Part shown: piece after piece, positions 3,646 through 64,000 of the stretch
Layout of the letters: every line of letters starts with the position of its first letter
How positions within the stretch are numbered: the stretch's first letter is position 1
Source of the DNA: a virus
Direction: 5' to 3' (one strand)
Virus record (IMG/VR): IMGVR_UViG_3300008116_000055
Coordinates: 99,542 to 163,541 of that record
DNA length: 64,000 nucleotides
Position numbers and translations under genes: made by a program
The notes under the pieces: model-generated
Told to the model about the DNA's origin: nothing
The model's input: only the letters and a program-made list of their open reading frames with translations
Databases searched by the model: none

Positions 3646-3647
3646 TA

Positions 3648-5076: not shown

Positions 5077-5087
5077 TTTTATAATTT

Positions 5088-5678: not shown

Positions 5679-5684
5679 ACTGAA

Positions 5685-8114: not shown

Positions 8115-8932
8115 ATATAAGTTGAAATGATTTCTAAATTTTTTAAAGTGTTAGTTTCTAAGAAATCAATTAATTCATCACCTGATAACCTATTAAACCA
8201 TTCTTCTAAACTTGCACCATAATTTTGTGTCGTTATTACTTCCAAACCTAAACATTTTGCCTCAACAACCAGTCTACAAAAAGTTTCTCTTGCTATCGGG
8301 AAAAACACAATACCTTTACATTTGGCCATATTACTTAAAAATTCAACTCTGTCTTTAGATTCTTTAAGAATATGGACCGGTAATTTATTTTCAGAACAAT
8401 ACTTCAGACTACCTTGGGTGTTCTTTATCCAATTATTTGTATAGTAAACAGAATATTTGTCGTTTTTAACATTGTTGGATTTATTTAAATTCCTCAATAA
8501 TTCTAAGTCCTCATTTGACCATATCGAACTATTCAGATTTATAAAATTAGCAACAACATCGTTTTTAAGATAAACGTTCATGTGGTCGGTTGTTTGAACA
8601 AATACCGCTTTTGCATTCCGGTAAAGAGAATAGTTGGTTCTTTCCTCAATCGGAATTATGTTGTCGGTATATCTCCATGGGTGTCTACTTGCACATATTT
8701 TATAATCGTTTTCAATAATGACGTAGTTCAAATTTTGTATTTGATTAACCAAGTTTGGGTTCATCAAAGAAATATTTGATATAATATACAGGGCGTTGTA
8801 ATCAAATGACTTGACTTGGTTTGAATATTCAAACTCAAGATTAAATCTATCAATTAAAACTTGATTCACCCATTCAGAACCACCGTGAGGTACTTCTTTA
8901 ATGGTAAAATCCGATATAAGTATTTTCCTCAT
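8111..8932 (-). CDS. hypothetical protein of the glycan cluster
   Basis: 273 aa ORF, ATGA-coupled. Confidence 0.4.
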   Translation of the reverse strand: MRKILISDFTIKEVPHGGSEWVNQVLIDRFNLEFEYSNQVKSFDYNALYIISNISLMNPNLVNQIQNLNYVIIENDYKICASRHPWRYTDNIIPIEERTNYSLYRNAKAVFVQTTDHMNVYLKNDVVANFINLNSSIWSNEDLELLRNLNKSNNVKNDKYSVYYTNNWIKNTQGSLKYCSENKLPVHILKESKDRVEFLSNMAKCKGIVFFPIARETFCRLVVEAKCLGLEVITTQNYGASLEEWFNRLSGDELIDFLETNTLKNLEIISTYI

Positions 8933-9651
8933 ATAACTTGATAATTTTCTTTTAACATGCTGTCCATGTAATTGAATGGTAAATTAAAATAATGTTCACC
9001 GAATTTATGTTGTTTATTGAACGATGACAATCTCTTTGCTCTTGAAATGTAAATGTTCTTCACGTAGTCTTTACCCAAGAATTTATAGTGAAGAAGTTTT
9101 ATTTCCCGCTCATCCGAAAATTTACCATCAACAGAATTAAAACTGTGACCACCAATGCCGTATTTTATATCTAAATCAGGATGAAAAATTATATTTTTAC
9201 ACATTGGTTCATACGTTTGTGAACCTGTTTTAATTTTTGTTGTAATGAATTCACCGTCGTATATTGGAAATTCAGTACTAACCATGTCGTGACCGTCTAT
9301 TCTTGGGACGGTTATACCCATTTCTTTGTACTCTTGAAGTTTATCCATAAGATTTTCATGGTATATAAACTCATCACAGTCACAAACTATAACCCAATCA
9401 ACACCCTGACCTCTACTTCTTTTTTTATACTCTTCGGATTTAATGTTTACGTAATTAATTTCATTTATTTCATTACCACTATCCCATTTAATAACCTCAA
9501 CTTTTGGGTACCTCTTATAAATCTCATCAGAGGAGTCCGTTGACATATTATCGTATATGAATATTTTTTCACAGATTGTACTATAGTAATCCAATGTGAA
9601 TGGTAATATTTTTTCTTCATTCCATGACAGTATATGTGCGTGTATCTTCAT
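8929..9651 (-). CDS. putative glycosyltransferase (GT2/GT92-like fold)
   Basis: 240 aa. HILSWNEEKILPFTLDYY...IYDNMSTDSS resembles GT-A fold nucleotide-sugar transferases. Confidence 0.45.
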   Translation of the reverse strand: MKIHAHILSWNEEKILPFTLDYYSTICEKIFIYDNMSTDSSDEIYKRYPKVEVIKWDSGNEINEINYVNIKSEEYKKRSRGQGVDWVIVCDCDEFIYHENLMDKLQEYKEMGITVPRIDGHDMVSTEFPIYDGEFITTKIKTGSQTYEPMCKNIIFHPDLDIKYGIGGHSFNSVDGKFSDEREIKLLHYKFLGKDYVKNIYISRAKRLSSFNKQHKFGEHYFNLPFNYMDSMLKENYQVI

Positions 9652-9652
9652 T

Positions 9653-10432
9653 TTAAAATATGTTTTTCCAAAGTGTTAATATCTCTTCGTTACTTAATTT
9701 AGAAACTTCATTCATAGTCTCTTCATTACCATAAAACTCTGTACCGGTTAAATAACATTCATCTTTAACCAAACAAGCAACCTCACCCTTTGATGAGTGA
9801 TATACCTTACCAATCATATCGTACATTTCTTGTTTATTGGTGGTGTGACCGTAATGAATTACTCTTGGATTCATTAAAGGTTTTACCAATTTGTCAAAAT
9901 AGTTTTGGTCACCGATGTGACCGAACAAATAGATTTTTTCACACCTGTCTTTTAATGCTCTTTGTATTGACACATGGGTCTGTTTTCTGTCTTCAATTGT
10001 ACCAATAATTCCTGCAATATTTCTTACCAGCTCTTTATTTGAAATAATTAAATTTTCTTTGATGTTTGGTATTATTACATAATCACCCCTGTAATCCGAG
10101 TGATATTTTCGATGCTCTTCATGTAAAAACACGCACAGGTCCCAATACTGTTTAATTTTACCAACAGGGAACCACCATTTTTCATGACAAGACAAAATAA
10201 CTTTTTTAACAGGTGGTCTTTCCTGTAGTTGTAAAAAATGGGTAATTACAATATCATCAGATTCATACTTTAAATCTTTTTCAATGTTCCCTGATTTACA
10301 TTTGTCTAAATGGTAATTCTGATTACCGTAAAATGTGCAATCAATACCATTTTCATTTAAGAAATTTGTTAAGTTTATAAAAAAAGTGGTAGAACCACCT
10401 TTTTCTGTAAATCCCGATACAATTTTTATCAT
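9653..10432 (-). CDS. hypothetical protein, possibly GT-B-type glycosyltransferase fragment
   Basis: 259 aa. MIKIVSGFTEKGGSTTF N-terminus reminiscent of GT1/GT4 N-domains. Weak. Confidence 0.3.
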   Translation of the reverse strand: MIKIVSGFTEKGGSTTFFINLTNFLNENGIDCTFYGNQNYHLDKCKSGNIEKDLKYESDDIVITHFLQLQERPPVKKVILSCHEKWWFPVGKIKQYWDLCVFLHEEHRKYHSDYRGDYVIIPNIKENLIISNKELVRNIAGIIGTIEDRKQTHVSIQRALKDRCEKIYLFGHIGDQNYFDKLVKPLMNPRVIHYGHTTNKQEMYDMIGKVYHSSKGEVACLVKDECYLTGTEFYGNEETMNEVSKLSNEEILTLWKNIF

Positions 10433-11886
10433 CTTAATTGTTTGATATTTTTTCTAATTTCAGGTGAGTTTATGTACTGACCTAAGACTTGTTTTAATTC
10501 AACATCAACCTTTTCAAATTTTGATGCCATATCAATCATTACCACACTGTTTGTGTCAATGAATGTTTTACGTTTTTTAAGTAAAGTTTTCAACGCAAAA
10601 TCTAAGTTATAAATTGATGTTTCTAAATTAATATCAAACCAATCAATCATTTTTAAATTTGTAGATGTAGTGGCAAAAAAGTCACTAATACTACCAAAAT
10701 TGTTTGGAAAGTGTCCGTGTAAAATATTGAAAAAAGATGATTTGTTTTTAAAAATTAAATTGAACTGTTCGTTGTTTTGAACTATATCCAATCCATTTGA
10801 AAAAATTGTTCGGTCGTTTTCTAATACTGTAGGAAAGACGCACCCAAAAGTATTTTTTTCACTCTTAAATATTGAATACATACTTGAGAAAACGTCGTTC
10901 AATACGGTAACAGTATCATTACTGAAAAATAACAAATCTGTTTTTGATTCCATAAACGATTCATCCCATTTCAGTACTGATAAGTTTTTATTTAATGTAT
11001 CAAAAAAACCCTCGTAAATTTTAATATTTTCAGATTCAAATTCTCTAATATTGTCTATATTGGTATCCGTCGAGATGAGTGAAATCTGTAAACTATCAAA
11101 CACTGGTAATTTTTTTATGTTTTCAAAAAACTGAATTAAATTTTCATTATCGTTTGATGTTTGAACTATTAAATTAAATTTATCTTTAAACTGTTTTGGT
11201 TTGGTTATGTCATAATCAATTTTTGGTGTTATATTAATTGGTAGGTTCTCTTTAAATTTTTCAATGTAAAATTCCCTATTCTTTTCCCAAGAATCATTGG
11301 TCATTCCGATTGATTTGTGAGTGATTCTTATGTTGTATATAACACCGATGTTTACCTCACTTAAGTGATTGCTAGTACAGAATACCATATCATAAAAATG
11401 AAAACCCGGTACTGACTCATCAAAAGTGTGTTTTATTCTGTTTTTGTGGATTCCAATGAATAAACCATCCACTAAACAAACTTCGTGAATTGAATTTGGG
11501 ATTCCATTTGCATATCTCGATTCCCATTTTTTACCCTCATTTTCATGATTAACAATACCAACCATTTTGGTATTATCTGTCCACCACCTACCACTCTCAT
11601 GAATATTGGTTGTACCGGCAACACCGAGAATCCCGTAGTCAGATTCTTCAAAATGTTTGACTAATTTTCTACCCCACGAAGTCGTATTAAAGTAAATGTC
11701 ATCATGACAAAGTACGACAATATCATGAATCGACTCTTGAATAATTTCATTGTAAGTTTGTGAAAGACTTTTTTCACCATTGTTTACTTTTTCAATAACT
11801 TGAACTTTGGGGTGTCCACAAGTTTTTTTTAAATATTCTTGAAATTTTGGGTTGGACTCTCTTGTACTGTAACCTATTGTAATCAT
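10429..11886 (-). CDS. multidomain glycosyltransferase-like protein (first gene of the glycan operon)
   Basis: 485 aa. N-terminal MITIGYSTRESNP...VVLCHDDIYF resembles a GT2 domain. The C-terminal half is unassigned. Confidence 0.45.
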   Translation of the reverse strand: MITIGYSTRESNPKFQEYLKKTCGHPKVQVIEKVNNGEKSLSQTYNEIIQESIHDIVVLCHDDIYFNTTSWGRKLVKHFEESDYGILGVAGTTNIHESGRWWTDNTKMVGIVNHENEGKKWESRYANGIPNSIHEVCLVDGLFIGIHKNRIKHTFDESVPGFHFYDMVFCTSNHLSEVNIGVIYNIRITHKSIGMTNDSWEKNREFYIEKFKENLPINITPKIDYDITKPKQFKDKFNLIVQTSNDNENLIQFFENIKKLPVFDSLQISLISTDTNIDNIREFESENIKIYEGFFDTLNKNLSVLKWDESFMESKTDLLFFSNDTVTVLNDVFSSMYSIFKSEKNTFGCVFPTVLENDRTIFSNGLDIVQNNEQFNLIFKNKSSFFNILHGHFPNNFGSISDFFATTSTNLKMIDWFDINLETSIYNLDFALKTLLKKRKTFIDTNSVVMIDMASKFEKVDVELKQVLGQYINSPEIRKNIKQLR

Positions 11887-15792: not shown

Positions 15793-16220
15793 TGGAATTT
15801 TTGAATTCACACCCCATAAAAAAGTCGGATTTAGGATTCCACGGAAATTTATTCGGTGGAAAACTTTTAGCGTGGATTGACGCGGCGGCTGCGGGATACT
15901 CCATGCAATTGTGTGATTCACCAAGATTAGTTACCGTATCAATTGATAAATGTTTTTTTGAAAAACCAGCCAAAGAGGGTCAGTTGATTAAAATTTACGG
16001 GTCACCAAGTAAATTAGGGAATACTTCAGTTACCTTGTATATGGAAGCAAGAGCACATAATGTTTACACAGGTAACCAAATTGTCATCTTGAAAACAAAC
16101 ATAAGGTTTGTTAGGATTGATGAAGAAGGTAATCCGGTACCAATTGGTGAAAAAGGTAGGAGTAGAATTCAAAAATTAATTGACATAAGAGATTCTGAAC
16201 AAAACGATGTCAACCCTTAA
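15792..16220 (+). CDS. acyl-CoA thioesterase (hotdog fold, YciA-like)
   Basis: 142 aa. FHGNLFGGKLLAWIDAAAAGYSMQ and VTVSID...F hotdog-thioesterase pattern. Confidence 0.7.
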   Translation: MEFLNSHPIKKSDLGFHGNLFGGKLLAWIDAAAAGYSMQLCDSPRLVTVSIDKCFFEKPAKEGQLIKIYGSPSKLGNTSVTLYMEARAHNVYTGNQIVILKTNIRFVRIDEEGNPVPIGEKGRSRIQKLIDIRDSEQNDVNP

Positions 16221-55564: not shown

Positions 55565-55686
55565 AGTATATTAAAAAGTTAATGAACCACCTTTGGTGGT
55601 TAAAAAAACAGAAGGTAGAAAGTATGGTTTACTGCGGTAGACCCACATCGGTTTAAACAATTTGAAACCATAGTTGTTACATCTAT

Positions 55687-55896
55687 ATGAAAAAATTTAT
55701 ACTGTACAGACCACTCTCGGATATGGAATCTGATGGGGTTTATTTTGACGAATCGGTTAAGAAGAAACTGGTTGAAGAGAGAGAAAAACAGGTATGTCAT
55801 TATAGTGGTTTACCCTCTGTTTGGATGTACAGTAGTGATAGGATTTTGACCCACGATACCCCTAATGTAATACAGAAAGAGTTAAAAAACCCTTGA
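55687..55896 (+). CDS. hypothetical small protein
   Basis: 69 aa, last gene of the plus block. Confidence 0.3.
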   Translation: MKKFILYRPLSDMESDGVYFDESVKKKLVEEREKQVCHYSGLPSVWMYSSDRILTHDTPNVIQKELKNP

Positions 55897-56092
55897 TTTT
55901 AACCCTGTAATCCAGACATTTTTTGTCGTAAGGAATTTTTCTCAGATATATACGAATGTATGACAAGAAATCCCGCTGGTCGTATTACAATCCATAAAAG
56001 TGGATTAAAGTGGGAAATTGTGGGACATAGTAGGGGATTGACCCTTGTTCGAAATAAGAGTTATATTTTTATATTTTCAGAAAAACAGATGT

Positions 56093-56128
56093 AAATAAAA
56101 AACCCCCAAGTGTCATACAAGGGGGTTA
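56093..56128 (-). terminator. intrinsic terminator at the convergence point (minus strand; possibly bidirectional)
   Basis: Plus-strand AAAAAA-AACCCCC-AAGTGTCATACAA-GGGGGTT. Read on the minus strand it is a GC stem followed by a T-run, immediately downstream of the stop of 56148..56966. Confidence 0.7.
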
Positions 56129-56147
56129 ATGTATATACGTATATATG

Positions 56148-56966
56148 TCATACACGTCTCGTGTCGTCAATAAAAATTCTTACGTTGTGTTTCTCCCTGA
56201 ACTTTTTTTCTAACTTATCAATAATATTATCTTGTAAGTTATAGGGGAAATCGGGACTACCTTTTTCGATACCATCTATGGTTTTAAATTTTGAATCAAT
56301 GAACGGAATTAAATCTTTTTCATTTTTTATATCTTTTTTCCCGCGTACCACAACTCTAATAACTGGGTTGTCTACGAGTTCATACTCATGGTCATCTATC
56401 TTTCCTTTTTTATATACGGTGTAATACACCGTCGCTCTCTTTATTAAAATTTTTATCCACTCATCCATTTGGTCAAAAAACTTAGGTAATACATCTTGAG
56501 GTAATACAAGGGAATATTGGCCAGACAAAATGTACTGTATTGTTGGATTATCATACCTGAGGTGATTGGTATAATTTCTGTCAAACGATTCTTCTAATAA
56601 ATCAATAATTAAAGGTCCGTTAATAAGGTGAAGTGACCTTATACTTAACTTGAACGGAAATTCACCGAACCCAATCTCTTGAATTTTTCTGCCAACCAAA
56701 ATGTAGATGTCATTAATCATCTCAGGATAAACCCTGTTAACATCAACAAATAGTTTCAATAGACATTCACTTATAAAAGGGACACCATCTATTGTTCCTT
56801 GGGTTGGGTCTTCAGCTACAACATATTTTATTGTAATGGTCCCATCGGTCAGTCCTTTAAGTGAGTCACCTATTTGTGGTAAAGCGTCGTGAAACTTTTG
56901 GACATCATCACCTTCTAAAGTTTCTGTTAGTTTAATCATCTCATTTACTTTACATATAAATACCAT
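56148..56966 (-). CDS. hypothetical protein
   Basis: 272 aa ORF. ATTTAGTTTGGC motif ends 8 nt upstream of its ATG. Confidence 0.5.
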   Translation of the reverse strand: MVFICKVNEMIKLTETLEGDDVQKFHDALPQIGDSLKGLTDGTITIKYVVAEDPTQGTIDGVPFISECLLKLFVDVNRVYPEMINDIYILVGRKIQEIGFGEFPFKLSIRSLHLINGPLIIDLLEESFDRNYTNHLRYDNPTIQYILSGQYSLVLPQDVLPKFFDQMDEWIKILIKRATVYYTVYKKGKIDDHEYELVDNPVIRVVVRGKKDIKNEKDLIPFIDSKFKTIDGIEKGSPDFPYNLQDNIIDKLEKKFREKHNVRIFIDDTRRV

Positions 56967-56972
56967 TCCCCC

Positions 56973-56984
56973 GCCAAACTAAAT
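56973..56984 (-). promoter_or_regulatory. ATTTAGTTTGGC motif copy (extended about 30-bp repeat GGGACCTGAGGAGGTCGATTTAGTTTGGCGG)
   Basis: Plus strand GCCAAACTAAAT read directly. Confidence 0.4.
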
Positions 56985-57075
56985 CGACCTCCTCAGGTCC
57001 CTGAACTAACAAGTGTTAGTTAGTTTGTGCCAAACAAAATCGGTACCGTCGGACGATTCTGAGGATTCTGATTCC

Positions 57076-57087
57076 GCCAAACTAAAT
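57076..57087 (-). promoter_or_regulatory. ATTTAGTTTGGC motif copy
   Basis: Plus strand GCCAAACTAAAT, within the ORF-free 56967-57237 region. Confidence 0.4.
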
Positions 57088-57132
57088 CGGTGGATTTATT
57101 GTTACAACATCAATTGTCTAAACAACCTTTCC

Positions 57133-57144
57133 GCCAAACTAAAT
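57133..57144 (-). promoter_or_regulatory. ATTTAGTTTGGC motif copy (extended repeat GGGACCTGAGATGGTCAATTTAGTTTGGCGG)
   Basis: Plus strand GCCAAACTAAAT. Shares about 30 bp with the 56973 copy. Confidence 0.4.
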
Positions 57145-57178
57145 TGACCATCTCAGGTCCCGTCGTCAGGATTCTCAT

Positions 57179-57214
57179 TAAAAAAAAAATCCCGTGACGT
57201 TAATCACAGGATTT
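57179..57214 (-). terminator. intrinsic terminator (minus strand)
   Basis: Minus-sense AAATCCTGTGA-TTAACG-TCACGGGATTT followed by TTTTTTTTTT, just downstream of the stop of 57238..57507. Confidence 0.7.
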
Positions 57215-57237
57215 GGTTAAGAGACTTGAGTCGTCTA

Positions 57238-57507
57238 TTACATATTACTCAAGATACTCTTACGGAACTCGAAAGCTTTCTTCTTGGAGGAGAAGTTCTG
57301 AGAGTAACGGGTTCCGTTAACGCTAGCACGTACACGGTAAGAGAAACCATCATAGTAGATGTGGTGTGAAACAGGTACGTAAGTACTTACGGTTGTTTTC
57401 ATAGCCGGAGCTGCTACTGCTTTCTTCCCACCCTTTTTGGGGGCTGGAGCTGGTTTCGCCGCTGGTTTGCTGGCGGGTTTTTTAGTTGTGGACTTCTTTG
57501 TTGCCAT
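57238..57507 (-). CDS. small basic DNA-binding-like protein (Lys/Ala/Pro-rich N-terminus)
   Basis: 89 aa. MATKKSTTKKPASKPAAKPAPAPKKGGKKAVAAPA histone-H1-like tail, then Y-x-G...Y-x-A...G-x-R-Y segment reminiscent of AP2/integrase-type DNA-binding domains. Confidence 0.45.
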   Translation of the reverse strand: MATKKSTTKKPASKPAAKPAPAPKKGGKKAVAAPAMKTTVSTYVPVSHHIYYDGFSYRVRASVNGTRYSQNFSSKKKAFEFRKSILSNM

Positions 57508-57590
57508 AATATATTGATTTTGATATATAAAATATACACAAGAAAATCCTAAAAACCAAATCCTATAAAAAAATCTTTCAAAGAACTAAT

Positions 57591-57602
57591 GCCAAACTAA
57601 AT
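57591..57602 (-). promoter_or_regulatory. ATTTAGTTTGGC motif copy containing the TAG stop of 57597..57917
   Basis: Plus strand GCCAAACTAAAT. CTA at 57597-57599 is the stop codon of the upstream gene. Confidence 0.45.
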
Positions 57603-57917
57603 CCACAGTATGATTCCCTCCTCAGGGTTATCAGGGTACCGTGACTCTTCTAAACATACACCACATGTGGATGGTAATAATTGCTGCTTACCTTTTATTC
57701 CATCTACCTGAAATTGCGATAGAGGTGCTGGTATACTGAATCCACATATGTGACACTCTAACCTATATACGTTTAACTCACCCTTCCAATATAAATCAGT
57801 CAAGTTGAATTTCTTTCCCATCACTACGTTGTCATTAACGTCGGTAATGGTGTCTTCTATTATTTCACCTGTGGTAGGGTCCGTGAAGTATACCTTGTCC
57901 CTGATGAAGAGTTTCAT
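57597..57917 (-). CDS. small Cys4 zinc-binding protein
   Basis: 106 aa. CHICG...CGVC. Confidence 0.45.
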   Translation of the reverse strand: MKLFIRDKVYFTDPTTGEIIEDTITDVNDNVVMGKKFNLTDLYWKGELNVYRLECHICGFSIPAPLSQFQVDGIKGKQQLLPSTCGVCLEESRYPDNPEEGIILWI

Positions 57918-58086
57918 TTACTCTTCCCCCTTTCTTCCAAACGTTGCAAATATTGTGAAAACATCTTGGCCGCCATTGCTAACCTTTGAGGTTTAAAACA
58001 ATATTTCTTATTAAGTCTAGCCATTGCTATCCTCATGAACTGTTCCTGAATCCGTGGTTCTACTACTATCATGACTTTAAATATTG

Positions 58087-58548
58087 CTACAGGTGAGTAT
58101 TGAATACATCAAAATCCCTAATTCCCATATTTTGTCTCTCCACTCTTGCGTTGTGCTGTAAAAACGCTTGAATACCTTCACCGTGTGGTACGGCTTGAAA
58201 TATTAGTTGCTGTTTAAATTGCTCTGAAGTAATAACTCGAACAACAGACAGTCCAAGTAATCTCATCCAAAATGGTTCGTCGACCATTACAGATTTAATC
58301 CTGAAATAGTTCACAGATTCTCGAGTCACACTGAAGACCCCTTTTCGTTCAATTACACAGTCATCATAGAATTCATACCTCCAACAATCTACTTCGAAAT
58401 ATTTGTAGATATAGATGACTACCGCCAATGCACATGCATATGGGTGTACGAAGTAAGTTGCTGGTACCATGGCCAGCCAACCAATATTCAACCACTGAGA
58501 TGGGGTGAATATGTGAATCGGTTCTTGAGGTTTCTGTGTATTGAACAT
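58087..58548 (-). CDS. membrane protein with bacterial PH (bPH_2/YdbS-like) domain
   Basis: 153 aa. N-terminal TM pair, then YEFYDDCVIERKGVFSVTRESVNYFRIKSVMVDEPFWMRLLGLSVVRV, fitting the bPH_2 pattern. Confidence 0.5.
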   Translation of the reverse strand: MFNTQKPQEPIHIFTPSQWLNIGWLAMVPATYFVHPYACALAVVIYIYKYFEVDCWRYEFYDDCVIERKGVFSVTRESVNYFRIKSVMVDEPFWMRLLGLSVVRVITSEQFKQQLIFQAVPHGEGIQAFLQHNARVERQNMGIRDFDVFNTHL

Positions 58549-58552
58549 AATA

Positions 58553-58843
58553 CTAAGTTTTTGTTACAGTTTTATTTGCGGTTGTTCCTGCTGGTGAACA
58601 TCCACATGGTGATGCTTTTCTACACATATTCATAAATGTCAGTGTATCCACTAAGTATACCTTCATGGTATCACCATATGAACCTTTATCCCATTGGGGT
58701 TTAATTACTTCTCGGGTTATGTTGCAATCGATAAAGTAAACTTTGTGTCCACTTACTAATGCCTTGTCCCCGTGTTGGATATATGTTCGATTGGTTCCAC
58801 AACCAACTAATCCAAGTGCTGATATAAATAATATTTTTTTCAT
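58553..58843 (-). CDS. small lipoprotein
   Basis: 96 aa. MKKILFISALGLVGC lipobox. Confidence 0.45.
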   Translation of the reverse strand: MKKILFISALGLVGCGTNRTYIQHGDKALVSGHKVYFIDCNITREVIKPQWDKGSYGDTMKVYLVDTLTFMNMCRKASPCGCSPAGTTANKTVTKT

Positions 58844-58867
58844 AACTCCAAATCTAAATAAAATTTA

Positions 58868-59530
58868 TTACTTCTCAATATGGATATCACGAAAAAATTC
58901 AAAATCAATTACTTCGTCTTCCTCCACCGCGAAGTCAACACACATTGCAATAATCTTTCCTCTTTTCTTTGCAACATATAATGTGTAAGAACCATCACCA
59001 AAACCAGATGAAGAAACTACTCCCTCGTCATACACACCGTATCGACTATCACCCAAGGTACGAGAACACATACTGATGTACCATTTTTCACCTTGTTCTT
59101 CCTCACGGGCCTCGGTCATTTCTTTCCAAGGTGTTACACCAAAGAATGAAATGTCACCATCTCCCAAACCGATTCGTTCTGTAATAGAGTCGTCACGGTA
59201 AGATTCTTTGGAGAAGATTCCACACTGACCTGAGTCGACACCGATGGTTGCAGGATAATCTTTCCAAACCAGTTTGTCGTCTTTATGGTCCTCGTGTATG
59301 ACAAGTATCATTGAACTTCGGATACCCCAATCACCACAGTCGTGACGCTTAACATAGGTGTCATACATACCGGGTTTAACACCACTAACAATTCCCTGAC
59401 ACCAGGTTGGGATTGTGTAACAAGGGTCGGATACTACGACCTCAGTTCCTAATTTGATTTTGTTTGTCATACACCTATTGATTTTTAATGTTCTATATTC
59501 AAAATTAATACATTTACTAGAATATTCCAA
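58868..59530 (-). CDS. hypothetical protein
   Basis: 220 aa. Likely start at the internal Met (MTNKIKLGTEVVVSDPCY...). Confidence 0.45.
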   Translation of the reverse strand: MEYSSKCINFEYRTLKINRCMTNKIKLGTEVVVSDPCYTIPTWCQGIVSGVKPGMYDTYVKRHDCGDWGIRSSMILVIHEDHKDDKLVWKDYPATIGVDSGQCGIFSKESYRDDSITERIGLGDGDISFFGVTPWKEMTEAREEEQGEKWYISMCSRTLGDSRYGVYDEGVVSSSGFGDGSYTLYVAKKRGKIIAMCVDFAVEEDEVIDFEFFRDIHIEK

Positions 59531-59561
59531 ATTTTTCTAGAATATTTTTGCCAATCTAAAT

Positions 59562-59909
59562 TCAGTACATCTCCTCCTTCAGTTGCTTTGCTTTCTCAAA
59601 GTGTTTCTTGATTTGGTTTGCAAAACTCACCAAACGAGCTTTGGTCTTTGCGTATGCGTAGAACTGACAATACTCACTGTCAAAATCGATTCCACTACAA
59701 TTGATGTTTCTCTTGACACAGTCCTCGAAGTCATAGGCAGAGTCGTAGTCGTGACCAATTGCTTCTTTTTTAGGGAAACCAGTAAGTGTCCACTGTGCTC
59801 CATCCCAATCACCTTTGTAAATTGAGAGTCCAATACCTGTTGAAATTGTTTCTGTTTTCATACCTCTACTTTTTAAATGTTGATTTGAATACTCGGATGT
59901 TTTCCTCAA
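59562..59909 (-). CDS. hypothetical protein
   Basis: 115 aa. Overlaps the next ORF by 44 nt, so the start may be internal. Confidence 0.35.
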   Translation of the reverse strand: MRKTSEYSNQHLKSRGMKTETISTGIGLSIYKGDWDGAQWTLTGFPKKEAIGHDYDSAYDFEDCVKRNINCSGIDFDSEYCQFYAYAKTKARLVSFANQIKKHFEKAKQLKEEMY

Positions 59910-60345
59910 TCTCGAGGTCCATAGCCTGAGCTAACTTCATCTTGGCTTTGGTCATGAACTCCTTGTCGCCAGACAAAATCTCCAAATCCTCCTCAGGGTG
60001 AAACTCAATCTTGTCGACAATAACACGGACATCTTTTGACTTCTTATCCTTACGGTAGAAAGGAGTCCTTGCGTAGATGTACTCACGAACTTGAGTCAAC
60101 TTGATATCACTGAGGTCCTCACGAATTCTCATTTGGATTATAATCTCCTCGAGTGATGCTAGTTTTTCGAATGTTAATTTACTCTCAGTGATTAAGTTCT
60201 TATATAAACCAGTGAGCTCTTTAAGCTCCTTAGAATATTTCTTACCATCACCGTGGTTGATGAATTGGTCATATGAACTCAGTTCACTCTTTGACCCTAC
60301 GATGTCAATGAAGACACCCTCGATTGTTTTATTTACTCGTCCCAT
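59866..60345 (-). CDS. hypothetical protein
   Basis: 159 aa. Confidence 0.45.
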   Translation of the reverse strand: MGRVNKTIEGVFIDIVGSKSELSSYDQFINHGDGKKYSKELKELTGLYKNLITESKLTFEKLASLEEIIIQMRIREDLSDIKLTQVREYIYARTPFYRKDKKSKDVRVIVDKIEFHPEEDLEILSGDKEFMTKAKMKLAQAMDLEIEENIRVFKSTFKK

Positions 60346-60350
60346 AATCT

Positions 60351-60611
60351 TTAAAAGAAGTTTAATACAGATTTTAACATGCCAAACAAAATTCGGGGTT
60401 CGGCTGTCCCGTCGGAAAATTTTACTTCAGAGTTTTCCATTTCTCTTTTCATTTGAATTGCTTCATCAACTTTAATCCGTTGCTCGATGGTTCTTGCGTG
60501 GTATTTGGATGAAACAATGACATTCTCTTGAGTTCTCAATGCGTCTACCCATTCTTGGTAGGTTAATTCTTCTTGAGGTTCTGCTGTCGATAATATTTTC
60601 AAATCTTCCAT
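60351..60611 (-). CDS. hypothetical protein
   Basis: 86 aa. Confidence 0.4.
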   Translation of the reverse strand: MEDLKILSTAEPQEELTYQEWVDALRTQENVIVSSKYHARTIEQRIKVDEAIQMKREMENSEVKFSDGTAEPRILFGMLKSVLNFF

Positions 60612-60617
60612 ATGAAT

Positions 60618-61232
60618 TTATTTTACTTTTTCCTTTAGTTCTTCTTCGTATATTCTACGGATTTCTTTTGCGTCTTCCGTATCCACATAAGGGAATTGTG
60701 CAACGAAGTCATCAACACTAGTTTCGTTATCGATTGCATATTCCATCTCATTTTGGAAAAGGGATTCCCAAAAGTATTCTTCGTCAAAACGATAGTTACC
60801 TTCGAGATAACCATAATCATCCTCAACCACTCCGTTTTGATTAATGGTTGTTTTGCCACAGAAATCACTTCCACCCTCCGAGTAGAACAACTCCACATCC
60901 ACACCATACATCTTGTGTAATACAACACCAAAGTTTATTGGTGGTGACCACGCCGTATCAGGTGACATATAGATAACATCCTTCTCAAAAGTGAAGTTGC
61001 AGTCGGCGTATGACACATCCCATTTGGTACCATACCAACTGGTGTTTGCATTATACCATCCACCTTGTTCGTATTCTTCTTTACTAATTTCAGGTTCACG
61101 ACCGATTAAGGACTCAAACACGATACACTTTTCAGGTTCGGACTTTGGAACATCATTAAGGATACGAGTGAGCAAACCAATCTGCTCTTCAGTACCTGTT
61201 ATTGTTATTGAGTTTTGACACCAGTTCGGCAT
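60618..61232 (-). CDS. hypothetical protein (MPNWCQN... family)
   Basis: 204 aa, acidic C-terminus. Confidence 0.45.
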   Translation of the reverse strand: MPNWCQNSITITGTEEQIGLLTRILNDVPKSEPEKCIVFESLIGREPEISKEEYEQGGWYNANTSWYGTKWDVSYADCNFTFEKDVIYMSPDTAWSPPINFGVVLHKMYGVDVELFYSEGGSDFCGKTTINQNGVVEDDYGYLEGNYRFDEEYFWESLFQNEMEYAIDNETSVDDFVAQFPYVDTEDAKEIRRIYEEELKEKVK

Positions 61233-61315
61233 AATCTATCTATTTTAAGCTGTTCATTAATACAAAGGTATAAAGAGGATACCATTTTACCAAACGATAT
61301 CCTCTTTTTATTTTT

Positions 61316-61861
61316 TTACCAGGATGATTGGTAGTAGAAATCTCCTTCCTTTTCCTCTAATAAGGGAGTGATTTGTTTGATGGTATCTTCTAAACCTTTT
61401 AGATACCACTCATCATATTCAGTTCCCCCGAAAAAGAAACCTGCTTGGGTTGGTAGTAGTTCTTCCGCAAGTTCGGTGTCGGTGTAGACATCGATGTCCT
61501 CATACAATTCCTTACCACCTTGCCAACCAACTTTCACCTGAACCTTCTTCGTCGGAGAATTTTTCAGGGTTGCTCTAACTTTCCCACAGGTATCCACCAA
61601 CTCTTTGAGTTTTTCGCGGTCTACATAATACTCACCACAATCGTCCTCACCGTCCTGTACATTGTTTACAAACCATGCGTGGATGTGGTTGTCCTTTCTC
61701 CAATACGCCACCTGTTCCTCGATGGATGAAATTCTGTCGGGTTGAATTTCCTTAACTACTTTCCCACCCTTCTTAACTGTCACCTTGTGAAGTTGTTCGG
61801 GTTCCATATGTGACCAATTTTTCACATAGGTTTTCTTCTTGAGATACATGTCTAATCCCAT
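61316..61861 (-). CDS. hypothetical protein
   Basis: 181 aa. Confidence 0.45.
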   Translation of the reverse strand: MGLDMYLKKKTYVKNWSHMEPEQLHKVTVKKGGKVVKEIQPDRISSIEEQVAYWRKDNHIHAWFVNNVQDGEDDCGEYYVDREKLKELVDTCGKVRATLKNSPTKKVQVKVGWQGGKELYEDIDVYTDTELAEELLPTQAGFFFGGTEYDEWYLKGLEDTIKQITPLLEEKEGDFYYQSSW

Positions 61862-61865
61862 TGTA

Positions 61866-62168
61866 TTATTGATTTAAGATGTTAAACAATTTTGTACCAA
61901 GACCAAATAACTTTTCGGCCTTATCTTCTCTTTTTCCTTCACTACACACGTAGATTGACTTATCAGGTAGAACACCCAAATCCAACATTCCAAATGTGTG
62001 TTCCCATTTACCATTGATGAATTGTTCACCTGTAAACCTTTCTTGTGCGTTGTACGCTTCGTAGGTCATTTTCAATTTGACATTATTCTCATTTTGAATA
62101 ATTCTCATCTCATATGACTTATCTCTCAAGTGAGATGATACCGAGTGGATTACTTTTTCTTTTTTCAT
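61866..62168 (-). CDS. hypothetical protein
   Basis: Track 61866..62186 from TTG. The first ATG (62168) sits exactly at the end of the 65-bp promoter repeat (MKKEKVIHSVSS...). Confidence 0.45.
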   Translation of the reverse strand: MKKEKVIHSVSSHLRDKSYEMRIIQNENNVKLKMTYEAYNAQERFTGEQFINGKWEHTFGMLDLGVLPDKSIYVCSEGKREDKAEKLFGLGTKLFNILNQ

Positions 62169-62170
62169 AA

Positions 62171-62234
62171 TACAAAGATATAACAATTTTTCTTTTATAC
62201 CAAATTTATTTTCAACTTTGTTGCCAAACTAAAT
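62171..62234 (-). repeat. 65-bp conserved promoter cassette, copy 1 (ATTTAGTTTGGCAACAAAGTTGAAAATAAATTTGGTATAAAAGAAAAATTGTTATATCTTTGTA in minus sense)
   Basis: Near-identical to 62559-62622 and 63315-63379. Contains TTTG-N20-TATCTTTG. The motif TAG is the stop codon of 62229..62540. Confidence 0.7.
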
Positions 62235-62540
62235 GTCCTCGACGGTAAAGTCATCCGACTCAAGGATGTCTATGATGTGTGCGAGTTCATATATGTCCAA
62301 TTCAACTAACGAGAGTTCTATACTATCACCAAAACTTTCCGACATCACAGTACCATCAGGTAATATTCCATACGCCGCGTATTGAACTCTACCATCATCT
62401 TCGTACATACCTTCGGTAACCCAAACTCCAAACACATTTCTAAATGTGATTTGTTGGTTCTCACCAATAATGGTCGAACATTTGTTTTTAATTTTTTTGA
62501 TTATTTCCTCTTGTAGGTCTTGAATTTTTTTCTTGTACAT
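62229..62540 (-). CDS. hypothetical protein
   Basis: 103 aa. Confidence 0.45.
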   Translation of the reverse strand: MYKKKIQDLQEEIIKKIKNKCSTIIGENQQITFRNVFGVWVTEGMYEDDGRVQYAAYGILPDGTVMSESFGDSIELSLVELDIYELAHIIDILESDDFTVEDI

Positions 62541-62558
62541 AATAAAATGTTTTAGTAA

Positions 62559-62622
62559 TACAAAGATATAACAATTTTTCTTTTATACCAAATTTATTTT
62601 CAACTTTGTTGCCAACCTAAAT
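62559..62622 (-). repeat. 65-bp conserved promoter cassette, copy 2 (motif variant GGTTGGC)
   Basis: Read directly. One substitution in the 12-nt motif (plus GCCAACCTAAAT). Confidence 0.7.
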
Positions 62623-62661
62623 CAATGTCCATCCCATAATATATGTGTACGAGGTTTTTAA

Positions 62662-62688
62662 TAAAAAACCCCACATTTCTGTGGGGTT
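62662..62688 (-). terminator. intrinsic terminator (minus strand)
   Basis: Minus-sense AACCCCAC-AGAAAT-GTGGGGTTTTTT, downstream of the stop of 62704..63294. Confidence 0.7.
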
Positions 62689-62703
62689 CTCTCCTTAAAC
62701 CAA

Positions 62704-63294
62704 TCAATCATAAGTAATCCTCGCGTATTTTACTGTGACCCAGTTGTCCTTTACAACAATCTTACCCATGTCCTCACCATCCTCGCCTTTCCAATAAACC
62801 TCACCATTTAATTTCACACCCCACTTCTCAAAGAAATGATTGATGATATATTTCAACCACTCAACGTAGTTGTAAAACTTCTCACCACCATCCCATATTA
62901 GATGAGTTCCATTTTCATCCGTAGTCCACTGACACCATAAACCAGGTTGACATTTACCCTCTCGTGTTCTCAAATCATTTTGTGTCCACCTTTCGTTGTA
63001 GTTAGTTGTTAGAAAATCTAGTTGACCTGGAGGTGTATTGTAATCGACAATACTATCATCCTTGTCTTGACCTGCGAACCCATTACCACCAACAAAGTAT
63101 TCACCATCGTTTCCGTAGGTTTCTTCTTTTGGTAGAAAAGGGTTTCCGTGTTCACCCTTAAATAACTCATAGAGTTTCTCAACATTTCGTTTCATTCTAC
63201 GAGTGTTGTTGAACTTGGTGATGTAATTCTTTTCATCACTAGTAAGTGGACGACTGAATTCAAATCCACCTTCGAAATCGGTTGTGTATCCCAT
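62704..63294 (-). CDS. hypothetical protein
   Basis: 196 aa (MGYTTDFEGGFEF...). Confidence 0.45.
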   Translation of the reverse strand: MGYTTDFEGGFEFSRPLTSDEKNYITKFNNTRRMKRNVEKLYELFKGEHGNPFLPKEETYGNDGEYFVGGNGFAGQDKDDSIVDYNTPPGQLDFLTTNYNERWTQNDLRTREGKCQPGLWCQWTTDENGTHLIWDGGEKFYNYVEWLKYIINHFFEKWGVKLNGEVYWKGEDGEDMGKIVVKDNWVTVKYARITYD

Positions 63295-63314
63295 ACTTTT
63301 TTAATTTAATTGTA

Positions 63315-63379
63315 TTACAAAGATATAACAATTTTTCTTTTATACCAAATTTTTTTTCAACTTTGTCGCCAAACTAAAT
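63315..63379 (-). repeat. 65-bp conserved promoter cassette, copy 3
   Basis: Read directly. The motif TAG (63374-63376) is the stop codon of 63374..63850. Confidence 0.7.
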
Positions 63380-63850
63380 CCCCCCTGTGAATATGGGGTT
63401 TGGTCTGAACTCCAATTTGTACTTTGGGTTGTAACTACCACCCGAACAATTGCTACATGAATAAGACCTACTTCTTAAACGATGGGCTTTGGATACCTTA
63501 CCACAACCAACACATGTTGCAATATATTTTGCTTCGGGTGTTTCAACTACTTTACTACTATAACAACGATGTCCATCACAACCTATTTCAATCGCTTTCG
63601 ACCTCCATACATGGTTATGTTTTTGACCAGGACAAAGTGCGTGTGCAATCTCATGTAGAATAGTATTCTTTACATGACTTTCATCATTAAGTAATGTCAA
63701 TACTTTGGATAGTGTAATTTGTTTAGGTCTGTATTTACAACACCCAAACCTACTTTTTGCATTGTCATACGCAAATGTCCACCCCTTAACATCTAACTTG
63801 TGTTTGTGAATTAACTTCTCTGCTAACCGTTGTGCTTTAATTAAGTCCAT
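63374..63850 (-). CDS. SprT-like zinc metalloprotease domain protein
   Basis: 158 aa. ILHEIAHAL (HExxH) then GQKHNHVWRSKA (H-x-W), plus C-terminal CxxC...CxxC zinc ribbon. Confidence 0.6.
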   Translation of the reverse strand: MDLIKAQRLAEKLIHKHKLDVKGWTFAYDNAKSRFGCCKYRPKQITLSKVLTLLNDESHVKNTILHEIAHALCPGQKHNHVWRSKAIEIGCDGHRCYSSKVVETPEAKYIATCVGCGKVSKAHRLRSRSYSCSNCSGGSYNPKYKLEFRPNPIFTGGI

Positions 63851-63865
63851 GTTGTTTTATTTTAG

Positions 63866-63877
63866 GCCAAACTAAAT
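63866..63877 (-). promoter_or_regulatory. ATTTAGTTTGGC motif copy containing the TAG stop of the partial gene at the window end
   Basis: Plus strand GCCAAACTAAAT, 14 nt upstream of the ATG of 63374..63850. Confidence 0.45.
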
Positions 63878-64000
63878 TTCACCTTCACCTGTCGTGATGT
63901 ACACTCCGTAATCGATGGTGTGCAATTGTGGTACTCCATCATTGTCCATGATGTGACCATCGAATAACCAGTTGGGTTGAACTCGTGGATTGTATCGAAC
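63872..64000 (-). CDS. hypothetical protein (partial; N-terminus beyond window end)
   Basis: Minus-strand frame open from the window end to the TAG embedded in the motif at 63872-63874. Confidence 0.35.
   Translation of the reverse strand, partial: VRYNPRVQPNWLFDGHIMDNDGVPQLHTIDYGVYITTGEGEI

Follow-up and report, generated by a model that had tools for sequence, protein, structure and literature searches.

The window analysed here (64,000 nucleotides of viral DNA) ends in the last 8 kb of a block of about 45 small genes, most of them ORFans, that run in one direction and span at least 21 kb. Each gene or small operon of this block has its own Bacteroidota sigma-A promoter and usually its own intrinsic terminator. 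The source group is that of uncultured large Bacteroidota-type phages; no deposited phage gave a nucleotide match, and the best cultured relatives of the helicase belong to Bacteroides and Chryseobacterium phages (33-36% identity). A 12-mer, ATTTAGTTTGGC, which we call M1 (consensus A-W-T-T-W-G-N-T-T-G-G-C(-A), sense being the minus strand), occurs in seven exact and four one-mismatch copies between 56973 and 63877, all sense to the minus-strand genes. The features of the block end are as follows.

63866 to 63877, minus strand: exact M1; its TAG is the stop codon of an L5-gp82-like ORF, 15 nt upstream of the ATG (63850) of a SprT-like gene
63315 to 63379, minus strand: 65-bp cassette, copy 1; M1 at 63368-63379, its TAG being the stop of the SprT-like gene
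63346 to 63349 and 63318 to 63325, minus strand: promoter of cassette copy 1 (-33 TTTG and -7 TAtcTTTG), with an 18-nt A-rich tract after M1
About 62660 to 62690, minus strand: intrinsic terminator before cassette copy 2, read directly in the sequence, CCCCACagaaatGTGGGGtttttt
62558 to 62622, minus strand: 65-bp cassette, copy 2; M1 variant ATTTAGGTTGGC at 62611-62622
62589 to 62592 and 62561 to 62568, minus strand: promoter of cassette copy 2 (-33 and -7)
62235 to 62557, minus strand: 103-aa ORFan (62232-62540) flanked by cassette copies 2 and 3, an insertion/deletion unit
62170 to 62234, minus strand: 65-bp cassette, copy 3; M1 at 62223-62234, its TAG being the stop of the 103-aa ORF
62201 to 62204 and 62173 to 62180, minus strand: promoter of cassette copy 3 (-33 and -7)
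60381 to 60392, minus strand: M1 TTG variant ATTTTGTTTGGC within the 3' end of ORF 60351..60611
59500 to 59561, minus strand: M1 variant ATTTAGATTGGC at 59550-59561 plus a promoter, upstream of a DUF4241 gene
59528 to 59531 and 59500 to 59507, minus strand: DUF4241 promoter (-33 TTTG, 18 nt after M1, and -7 TAatTTTG)
57591 to 57602, minus strand: exact M1; its TAG is the stop of a 106-aa ORF, upstream of the AP2-like gene
57238 to 57507, minus strand: AP2-like gene (89 aa, Lys/Ala/Pro-rich tail, AP2-like DNA-binding fold)
57187 to 57214, minus strand: intrinsic terminator after the AP2-like gene
56973 to 57144, minus strand: array of four direct M1 copies at 57133, 57076, 57029 (TTG variant) and 56973
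55873 to 56160, no strand assigned: five GTAT[T/G]ACA boxes at 55873, 55958, 55982, 56118 and 56153

The four copies of the array, spaced by 57, 47, and 56 nt, follow the terminator and precede the block's last gene, and the GTAT[T/G]ACA cluster lies at the block end in a convergent non-coding region. A stem-loop surrounds the -33 box at about 61270-61310.

The first-pass annotation listed eight copies of the motif, and all eight are borne out: 56973, 57076, 57133, 57591, 62223, 63368, and 63866 are exact, and 62611 has one mismatch. It missed three further one-mismatch copies (57029, 59550, and 60381). Its statement that the copies run in the same orientation as the genes extends to all 11, and its description of them as intergenic holds for the eight that it listed (intergenic or overlapping a stop codon); 60381 was not on that list. 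Its descriptions of the three-copy 65-bp cassette and of the 30-bp extension found at 56973 and 57133 are also correct. It had also proposed to compare the frequency of the motif with expectation on both strands. With up to one mismatch, 11 copies were observed against 0.50 expected, 0 of 100 shuffles reached 11, and no copy beyond those in 56973-63877 was found on either strand elsewhere in the 64 kb, so that the motif is confined to one strand and one block. A relaxed core, T[T/A]G-N-TTGGC, recurs at 14 sense-strand positions between 56 and 64 kb, where 0.12 would be expected, and is absent from the remaining 56 kb of the window. The 22-kb block of a relative, C1, carries 36 M1 copies, and solo copies are in the sense orientation in every case. 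The composite TTGNTTGGCNNNGTATTACA gave scattered single matches only, with no host counterpart, among 185,579 bacterial genomes. The window and the blocks of relatives thus agree with the earlier suggestion of a phage-specific motif limited to one gene class.

The promoters downstream of M1 are perfect host-type Bacteroidota promoters (-33 TTTG, 19-20 nt, -7 TAnnTTTG). M1 lies within 200 nt upstream of 47 of the 57 block promoters of the window and four relatives, and upstream of 0/7 equally good host-type promoters outside the block. Most copies in relatives follow an intrinsic terminator and precede a promoter, in a stretch where little transcription is expected; in the window, only a few (63866 and 60381) are within a transcription unit. 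Terminators of the window are seen at about 62660-62690 and 57187-57214, and two of the three 65-bp copies lack one. The start codon is 50-110 nt from M1, with the promoter in between; the closest copy, 63866, is 15 nt from the SprT-like ATG with no promoter in between, and no canonical promoter was found downstream of this copy or of the four-copy array. M1 is the conserved arm of a putative regulatory repeat family that stands before almost every host-type promoter of the early small-gene block.

In solo copies, the distance from the GGC of M1 to the TTTG of the -33 box is 7-9 (n=6), 18-20 (n=16), or 29-31 nt (n=2), with no values between, in a sample that is partly non-independent because several of the d=18 cases copy one cassette. 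The distant lineages have too few solo sites with regex-detectable promoters to contribute to these classes. An orthologous promoter pair differs by an 11-nt spacer indel (d=8 in C1 vs d=19 in L009) and a related cassette pair by a 10-nt indel (d=8 in L071 vs d=18 in the window cassette), and in both pairs the rest aligns. As read from these spacers, the spacing of solo M1 from the -33 box is helical phasing. Copies in inverted pairs are 36-104 nt from the -33 box and show no phasing. The first-pass annotation had offered a middle or late promoter as one option for the motif, which does not agree with perfect host-type promoters downstream and M1 upstream of them at phased distances.

M1 is also conserved beyond its surroundings. 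Its fixed positions do not vary even between lineages whose block proteins share no more than 40-85% identity; position 7, by contrast, varies freely, and the flanks cannot be aligned. When the window is compared with a close relative, the motif is 94% identical, other intergenic DNA 89%, and third codon positions 78.5%. More distant relatives have the same architecture, including inverted pairs around GTATKAC and a site upstream of the AP2-like gene, and within each of these genomes all copies have switched together: ATTTAGTCTGGA in L224, ATTTTGTCTGGA in L228, ATTTTGCTGGGC in L222, and ATTATGACCGGC in L226, with endings such as TCTGGA, CTGGGC, and ACCGGC. The site orthologous to 57591 carries the lineage's own variant in each distant lineage. 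Judging from the motifs, this lineage-wise switching is the signature of a co-evolving trans-acting factor, and we infer that a protein binds M1.

A second box, M2 (GTAT[T/G]AC), is enclosed by inverted M1 pairs. In five distant relatives, the blocks are enriched about 5-fold in this box, and 0 copies were found outside the block (the window plus eight non-block loci of relatives) against about 20.7 expected. The AP2-like protein is nearly invariant across lineages with different M1 variants and is therefore a poor candidate for M1; as a candidate trans-factor, it would more likely act on the GTATKAC box. The block of every lineage also codes for a ParB-like protein, and to name it as a candidate M1 factor is only a guess.

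The first-pass annotation regarded M1 as a combined signal for the end of one gene and the start of the next, with its TAG serving five times as a stop codon. The TAG is indeed the stop of ORFs 57597..57917, 62229..62540, and 63374..63850, and of the ORF that runs off the window at 63872, the orthologue of which is a 129-aa L5-gp82-like protein (L001 9033-9422). The fifth case, a tiny frame ending at 62617, has six codons only (ATG GGA TGG ACA TTG ATT TAG) and was rejected as a gene, which leaves four real M1 stops. At 59550, the copy is in frame two codons past a TGA stop; at 60381, the TTG variant has no stop, so that the ORF continues for 11 more codons. At the L009 junction orthologous to 63866 (13815), the ORF reads through a TTG variant and the next gene is a different one. 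The combined signal does not hold, since most copies in relatives lie between a terminator and a promoter and TTG variants are read through. The stop-codon role of M1 is opportunistic, a side effect of position 5, where the TAG arises because T or A is tolerated. Where a cassette abuts an ORF, the A variant gives a handy in-frame stop.

T4-type phages carry a close known parallel in layout, the promoter-early stem-loops or PeSLs (Arbiol et al., 2010, PMC2839356; Comeau et al., 2014, PMC4122927). Like the cassettes described here, PeSLs are intergenic repeats in which a terminator stem-loop is combined with an early promoter of host-type consensus and an A/T-rich tract upstream of it, and they too cluster in a plastic region rich in ORFans. 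Here the three 65-bp copies have TTTG-N20-TAtcTTTG and the 18-nt A-rich tract, a design also seen in relatives, where terminators precede most cassettes; the stop codon of the upstream gene can fall inside the cassette, and a gene is gained or lost between close relatives with two flanking cassettes vs one. Unlike PeSLs, the present cassettes use Bacteroidota -33/-7 promoters rather than the sigma-70 -35/-10 promoters of T4-type myoviruses, and PeSLs have no invariant 12-mer, inverted-pair form, second box, or lineage-specific motif switching.

This likeness raises the possibility that M1 is purely a recombination joint, the conserved edge of PeSL-like mobile cassettes with no transcription role, its uniformity being maintained by homologous recombination or gene conversion, or by a dedicated recombinase of which it is the site (as in integron attC-like inverted pairs). 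The window has the 103-aa gene together with one more cassette than C1 (L001), which lacks the gene and has a single cassette there (15794-15866), and homology between the two resumes exactly at 62234, the first base of M1. L003 and L004 have only 63326-62559 in common with the window, which places their breakpoints in the -7 boxes of two cassettes, and L004 has a different gene after the same cassette. C1 shows a motif-45 bp-motif duplication, the four-copy array of the window has three copies in a relative, and the M1 junction after the gp82-like gene is kept with a different gene following it. A further likeness to attC lies in the inverted pairs at gene 3' ends, with their variable centre. 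These events make the cassettes plausible units of exchange, but 12 bases are too few for efficient homologous recombination, the breakpoints are scattered over the 65-bp cassette (at the -7 box, or ~15 nt after M1) with no fixed M1 position, and an indel at 59600 is not bounded by the motif. Concerted evolution leaves the -33 phasing, the free position 7, and the fixed orientation of solo copies unexplained, and no recombinase is among the 25 of 43 window Pfam families listed. We consider M1 unlikely to be a joint and nothing else.

It is less probable still that M1 is itself a promoter element, either a variant -7 box (TAgtTTGG) or the -33-like TTTG of a tandem upstream promoter, used by host sigma-A, an alternative sigma, or a phage-modified RNA polymerase. 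SM5-type boxes (TAnnTTGY) exist in flavobacteria (PMC9723704) and would accommodate such a reading, no canonical promoter separates copies 63866 and 56973 from the following ATG, and in the d=18-20 cassettes a TAaaTTTG overlapping the main -33 box stands 16-18 nt from the TTTG of M1. The first-pass annotation was right that the motif does not fit the TAnnTTTG box, although the TAG variant is only one base off. Most relatives carry TTG, which leaves the "TA" unconserved, in contrast to the invariant G11, C12, and A1; the tandem geometry fails for d=7-9, d=29-31, and about half of the d=18-20 sites; and the lineage variants TCTGGA, CTGGGC, and ACCGGC lose the TTTG.

We give little credence to M1/M2 composites as targets of a site-specific nuclease or nickase, or as origin- or packaging-type signals. 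The avoidance of GTAT[T/G]AC outside the block with enrichment inside is typical of nuclease or signal sequences, and M2 sits in the hairpin loop of the shortest inverted elements, but this evidence bears on M2, not M1, and leaves the M1-promoter phasing unexplained; dozens of copies per genome are far too many for an origin or pac site, and no nuclease is linked to the sites. Least credible is a role at the RNA level (processing at RNase III-type hairpins like those of the T7 early region, RNA stability, or termination-reinitiation): inverted pairs fold into hairpins better than shuffled controls (DNA z-scores of -3.4 to -4.6 for 5/8) and four copies overlap stop codons, with 63866, 63368, 62223, and 57591 in predicted read-through transcripts, but the usual place of a copy is after an intrinsic terminator and before the following promoter, start codons are 50-110 nt away, past a promoter, solo copies lack a partner with which to pair, the motif has no Rfam match, and the arms are invariant with a lone variable position often mismatched between them, indicating that sequence and not pairing is conserved. 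The reinitiation signal on the first-pass list is likewise at odds with copies in DNA expected to be little transcribed and with TTG variants, which carry no stop.

Among repeated phage sites, the operators and stoperators of Cluster A mycobacteriophages, bound by L5 gp71-type repressors (PMC9283540), are similar in being asymmetric 12-13-bp sites in >20 copies, intergenic, with an orientation tied to transcription and a consensus that differs between phage lineages along with the factor. Stoperators, however, are genome-wide and stop elongation inside transcription units, whereas M1 is confined to one gene block, mostly upstream of promoters, helically phased, and often in inverted pairs with a second box; no gp71-like repressor was recognised in Pfam and PHROG scans of the window and block of this incomplete genome. 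The start-associated sequences (SAS) and extended SAS (ESAS) of Cluster K mycobacteriophages are 13-bp repeats whose function is still unknown (PMC3203893). They share with M1 the asymmetry, the single orientation, the restriction to the non-structural half of the genome, a stop of the upstream gene that is sometimes inside the motif, and a consensus that varies by subcluster; imperfect inverted repeats separated by a variable spacer likewise occur at about half of the sites. SAS differ in their Shine-Dalgarno-like core and their place 3-7 bp before the start codon, which suggest a translation role, whereas M1 is 50-110 nt away, upstream of a promoter, with no ribosome-binding character and no AGGAG core. 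In phi29, protein p4 recognises imperfect inverted repeats that precede early and late promoters, which it represses or activates through the alpha-CTD, and the O_B operators of KorB in IncP plasmids are simple palindromes found in multiple copies upstream of many promoters. By analogy, M1 may likewise be one site that serves coordinate control in many copies at varied distances upstream of one replicon's promoters, but neither system's sites show sequence similarity to M1, and the KorB sites differ in being simple palindromes. The ParB-like protein of every lineage's block may extend the KorB analogy, as a candidate only.

We lean towards M1 being a cis-acting site for a phage-encoded, lineage-specific DNA-binding factor on the early-block promoters, embedded in mobile promoter cassettes. 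From sequence evidence, the best reading of M1 is an upstream operator, not itself a promoter or reinitiation signal, and M1 most likely serves as a site at which a phage-encoded regulator of early promoters docks. Of the options in the first-pass annotation, an activator site, that is, a site for a phage factor, is the most plausible; the tie of the motif to promoters is likewise supported. Solo M1 copies lie upstream of an A-rich UP-like tract, centred near -50, -60, or -71, which places solo copies on one helix face relative to the -33 box; with this fixed orientation and face, a bound protein could touch RNA polymerase. Inverted M1 pairs around M2, further upstream between terminator and promoter, may be auxiliary or looping sites. 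As to the sign of regulation, shut-off or silencing would be favoured over activation because the block promoters are already of consensus strength, and the centring of the sites at -50 to -71 counts against silencing, such positions being more usual for activators than for repressors. In either case, the function of M1 would be coordinate control of the early block, and the M1-led promoter cassettes appear to serve as PeSL-like portable joints through which genes are gained, lost, and swapped by recombination.

The 12-nt repeat ATTTAGTTTGGC (hereafter M1), the form sense to the minus-strand genes and the reverse complement of the plus-strand string GCCAAACTAAAT, lies in the last 8 kb of the window, a block of co-directional small genes with a G+C content of 0.36-0.39 versus about 0.32. 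The first-pass annotation counted eight copies in one orientation, and this was borne out, seven being exact and the eighth, at 62611, having one mismatch. It also held that the TAG within the repeat served five times as the stop codon of the upstream gene; four of these are real stops, while the "tiny frame" ending at 62617 is a six-codon ATG frame and no gene.

56973, 57076, 57133, 57591, 62223, 63368 and 63866, all on one strand: exact copies of M1
57029, 59550, 60381 and 62611, same strand as the exact ones: copies of M1 with one mismatch
57597..57917, 62229..62540 and 63374..63850: ORFs ended by the TAG of M1
63872: the TAG of M1 as stop codon of an ORF running off the window, whose orthologue has 129 aa and a Phage_L5_gp82 domain

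At up to one mismatch there were 11 matches where 0.50 were expected, a number reached in 0 of 100 dinucleotide shuffles, and none in the remaining 56 kb of the window on either strand. The relaxed core T[T/A]G-N-TTGGC has 14 sense-strand copies at 56-64 kb (0.12 expected) and none in the window outside that region.

Most block genes belong to no family (the exceptions are SprT-like, DUF4241, bPH_2 and DUF1281_C), and megablast of the block against deposited phages gave no nucleotide-level match. The remainder of the window encodes glycosyltransferases, a glutamine-synthetase-like protein, thymidylate synthase, a UvrD-type helicase (33-36% identical to Bacteroides and Chryseobacterium phage proteins), DNA methyltransferases and similar functions, with no structural genes among the matches listed. 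Two of its features are as follows.

835-11886, minus strand: 14 back-to-back ORFs of about 200-490 aa
17381-18706, plus strand: thymidylate synthase of 441 aa, its Pfam domain matching in two stretches (residues 6-344)

Window ORFs match glycosyltransferase family 2 (four), FkbM-type methyltransferase (two) and UDP-GlcNAc 2-epimerase, and 838-1452 (methyltransferase) and 10429-11886 (glycosyltransferase) were mapped singly to the 14-ORF run, possibly a large gene cluster for the glycosylation of surface structures or DNA, which would be unusual in a phage. The two-stretch match of the thymidylate synthase suggests an insertion or extension. The window has no tRNA; tRNA-like sequences lie within the early block of a distant relative (L224 6371-6952 and 9427-9676).

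Relatives of the block were found in IMG/VR. A 196-aa block protein is 98% identical in L001 to L004, and one of these four, on a 72.9-kb contig and used here as a joined sequence (C1), carries the block 14 kb past the window end. The same block is present in the more distant L009 (310,691-bp contig, IMGVR_UViG_3300042545_001134), L038 and L071 (82-kb contig), whose block proteins are 40-85% identical to those of the window and C1. Over these five lineages the consensus of M1 is A-W-T-T-W-G-N-T-T-G-G-C, mostly followed by A, with position 7 free and position 5 either T or A; the 12-mer limits proposed at first are therefore correct, and ATTTAG is a local A variant. The further proposal that M1 is a combined gene-end signal did not hold. 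Of the 24 TAG-variant copies just 7 end an ORF that is 45 aa or longer, and where TTG variants abut ORFs these read through up to the next stop (e.g., window 60381 and L009 13815), so the stop function is an opportunistic use of a T/A-tolerant position and not the purpose of M1.

The intergenic plan, read in the window, C1, L009, L038 and L071, is common to all. The stop codon is followed by an intrinsic terminator, 20-50 nt of G+C-rich filler and M1; then come an optional spacer with an inverted M1, an A-rich tract, a -33 TTTG(G) box, 19-20 nt, a -7 TAnnTTTG box, 20-30 nt and the ATG. Together, the -33 and -7 boxes make up the sigma-A promoter of Bacteroidota (PMC9723704). Where M1 forms an inverted pair, its forward arm is followed after 3-4 nt by another box, GTAT[T/G]AC(A) (M2, GTATKAC), and some pairs have a second, inverted M2 ahead of the reverse arm; the shortest such element is TTGTTTGGC-ac-GTATTAC-GCCAAACAA. 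Searches with the inverted-pair pattern returned mostly unrelated conserved coding sequences or chance palindromes, and true relatives were told from chance by motif density; an exact search for the 65-bp cassette (M1, A-rich tract and promoter) in IMG/VR gave no match.

When matches to TTTG-N19-20-TAnnTTTG were counted as promoters, an M1 arm was found within 200 nt upstream of 47 of the 57 sense-strand block promoters in these five lineages, versus 0 of 7 promoters of equal quality in the remaining 56 kb. M1 thus marks a promoter class and is not a generic component of host-type promoters. Where M1 stands alone, the distance from its GGC to the TTTG falls into groups of 7-9 (n = 6), 18-20 (n = 16, not fully independent since several of the cases at 18 nt are copies of one cassette) and 29-31 nt (n = 2), with empty gaps between them and just six scattered cases beyond 45 nt. 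Such steps of 10-11 nt put M1 on one helix face, centred near -50, -60 and -71. This distance is 8 nt in C1 versus 19 nt in L009 in the orthologous region upstream of the gp82-like gene, and 8 nt in L071 versus 18 nt in the window for a related cassette pair (both alignment A3); in each comparison one 10- or 11-nt indel accounts for the difference and the remainder aligns. The inverted pairs are without phasing, their reverse arm lying 36-104 nt from the -33 box, and the phasing scan found few solo sites with detectable promoters in distant lineages.

The cassettes appear in varying contexts. A 103-aa ORFan of the window (62232-62540) has one copy of the 65-bp cassette on either side; in C1 there is a single cassette and no such gene, and homology is back exactly at 62234, the first base of M1. 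This gene flanked by two copies versus one in C1 is the topology of the promoter-early stem-loop (PeSL) cassettes of T4-type phages, which also includes stop codons within the cassette (PMC2839356). L003 and L004 share with the window only 63326-62559, after which L004 runs into a different gene; two cassettes thus have the breakpoints in their -7 boxes. The single motif of the window at 57591 corresponds in C1 to motif-45 bp-motif, and the array downstream of the gene at 57238-57507 has four units in the window versus three in C1. M1 after the gp82-like gene is kept in the window, C1 and L009, and the next gene downstream differs. One indel, in the 59600 region, is not bounded by the motif. 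These exchanges are what a pure recombination joint would leave; set beside the breakpoints in -7 boxes and the phasing on the -33 box, we hold it unlikely that M1 is this and nothing else.

Two further structures were noted beside the cassettes. At about 61270-61310 (minus strand) the -33 TTTGG of the promoter that serves gene 60618..61232 lies within a stem-loop, AGGATA…TATCCT, without any M1 there, as in the described PeSL subclass with terminator/promoter overlap. C1 13255 and C1 9067 (= L001 8124 and 3936) contain a homologous spacer, …aataaaatcaa.acttt…, in opposite orientation, and their arms share one asymmetry (forward arm T, reverse arm G-equivalent), which suggests inversion or recombination inside the arms.

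The window and C1 agree at 94.4% of positions in the 12-mers and at 100% in the -33/-7 boxes; the remaining intergenic DNA reaches 89%, and third codon positions 78.5%. Still more distant relatives (the L222-L229 set), reached via homologues of the 89-aa protein described below, keep the block order DUF932, DUF6915, ParB-like, GP88, gp82-like, DUF4241, bPH_2, AP2-like. They lack …TTGGC and have at the same places a variant of their own, uniform per genome.

ATTTAGTCTGGA: M1 variant of L224/L225 (in L224, 10 sense and 3 antisense copies)
ATTTTGTCTGGA: M1 variant of L228/L229 (in L228, 14 sense and 5 antisense copies)
ATTTTGCTGGGC: M1 variant of L222 (7 copies)
ATTATGACCGGC: M1 variant of L226/L227 (9 copies)

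Inverted pairs still surround GTATKAC (e.g., ATTTAGTCTGGAaatatctGTATTACatTCCAGACTAAAT), and at the orthologous site ahead of the AP2-like gene each lineage has the variant peculiar to it. All copies in a genome have switched while the architecture stayed fixed, as expected of a co-evolving trans-acting recognition factor; the site consensus likewise shifts together per lineage in the Cluster A stoperators (PMC9283540) and Cluster K SAS/ESAS (PMC3203893). An M1-like sequence also lies inside the coding sequence of a conserved 159-aa gene (59968-59979, minus strand), encoding …ILSG… or …LLG…; the internal site at L224 7583 and L222 7923 matches each lineage's own variant, which hints at a functional internal site or an evolutionary source of the motif.

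On balance we consider it probable, by a modest degree, that the early-block promoters answer to a lineage-specific regulator encoded by the phage, with M1 as its upstream operator, carried in PeSL-like mobile promoter cassettes. Because the block promoters are already at consensus, we lean to shut-off. A ParB-like protein (phrog_12305, E = 1e-20), encoded in every block and in L001 at 5685-6437, is a candidate factor. Perfect DnaA-box 9-mers TGTGGATAA / TTATCCACA adjoin its gene in relatives, in intergenic regions; by eye, none was seen upstream of the gene in C1.

L009 649-971 and 10868-11052: intergenic regions with DnaA boxes
L228 4061-4300: intergenic region with DnaA boxes as an inverted pair

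The 89-aa protein of window 57238-57507 (minus strand) has a predicted AP2/ERF-like (integrase arm-type) DNA-binding fold and a histone-H1-like Lys/Ala/Pro tail; it belongs to no Pfam or PHROG family and has 120 homologues on phage contigs from the environment. In every lineage its gene is the last of the block or the last but one, and after it comes an array of M1 (window), M2 (L228, L222, L226) or both (L224). As the reader of M1 it was rejected, its DNA-binding domain being nearly invariant across lineages with different M1 variants; since the domain hardly changes while M1 does, it would be the better candidate for the invariant M2.

M2 itself is distributed strictly. GTAT[T/G]AC has 17 copies at 55873-63770 and none on either strand of window 1-55800, where a maximal-order Markov model expects 9.3; GTATAAC and GTATCAC are both at expectation in the window. 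Besides the window, L214-L216 and L222-L227 were surveyed. Three relatives have no copy of the box in 54 kb of non-block DNA (5.8 expected), nor have five more distant ones in 39 kb (5.6 expected by the Markov model, 13.3 by composition), making 0 versus about 20.7 expected (Markov model) in roughly 149 kb of non-block DNA examined. The box is about 5-fold enriched in the blocks of the five distant relatives (92 versus 17 expected) and is not depleted in the more remote phages L217-L219. Judging by this purging, even one M2 site outside the block would seem to do harm. Where the block ends, several GTAT[T/G]ACA boxes in both orientations occupy the junction region.

Window 55650-56150 and C1 22070-23953: non-coding region where the minus block meets the plus block
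About 56100-56130: terminal terminator hairpin with one box in its loop, CCCCCttGTATGACActtGGGGG
56146-56153: GTATGACA box, within which the TGA stop of the last gene falls

A broader reading, which we regard as rather improbable, is that M1 and GTATKAC are together the address label in a self-directed control system for the early region. M1 would be read by a lineage-specific factor and GTATKAC by a conserved small protein, possibly the AP2-fold protein at the block end; both would silence the early block as a whole or act on its DNA in some other way, and GTATKAC would be cleared from other DNA because even single sites are harmful there.

The other explanations fare worse than the operator reading. 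That M1 is a promoter box we think quite doubtful; a tandem promoter with M1 as the -33 box was rejected, since it fits roughly half the sites in a single spacing class. It seems very improbable that the sites are a nuclease or origin signal. An analogy with the HUH nuclease or CRESS origin, a minor rival, comes from GTATTAC, which when placed in a hairpin loop is reminiscent of the NAGTATTAC nonamer, but that geometry is true only of the shortest L071 elements; in others the box keeps to the 5' arm, and the analysis saw no Rep-like protein. A signal acting at the RNA level is hardly to be expected; an Rfam scan of the window and three relatives found no match. A host-factor site was rejected. 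M1 alone being too short for scanning, the composite TTGNTTGGCNNNGTATTACA was used, and 185,579 bacterial genomes gave scattered single matches only, none multi-copy, consistent with chance; a host regulon is thus unlikely. A sigma-54 site (TGGCA-N5-TTGA) was dismissed, the TTGGC half alone being conserved among copies, as was a MITE, no target-site duplications being seen at the ends of the inverted pairs.

To our knowledge, the way in which Bacteroidota phages regulate their genes has hardly been explored, especially in the large uncultured freshwater and marine lineages known from metagenomes only. M1 offers a sequence-defined regulon, with dozens of promoters per genome under one short site, natural specificity variants between lineages and 10-11 bp spacing variants. 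It lets the early gene class be identified with nothing but the sequence and predicts a cognate DNA-binding factor, to be sought by co-variation. Its cassette is a portable host-type promoter with a built-in control site for Bacteroidota genetics, and evolution by PeSL-like "mobile promoter cassettes" extends beyond T4-type phages. The strict exclusion of GTATKAC is a testable signal of a sequence-specific activity; if the address-label reading is true, it would be a genome-partitioning code in a phage, in which one region is marked for the action of a factor and the others are kept clean.
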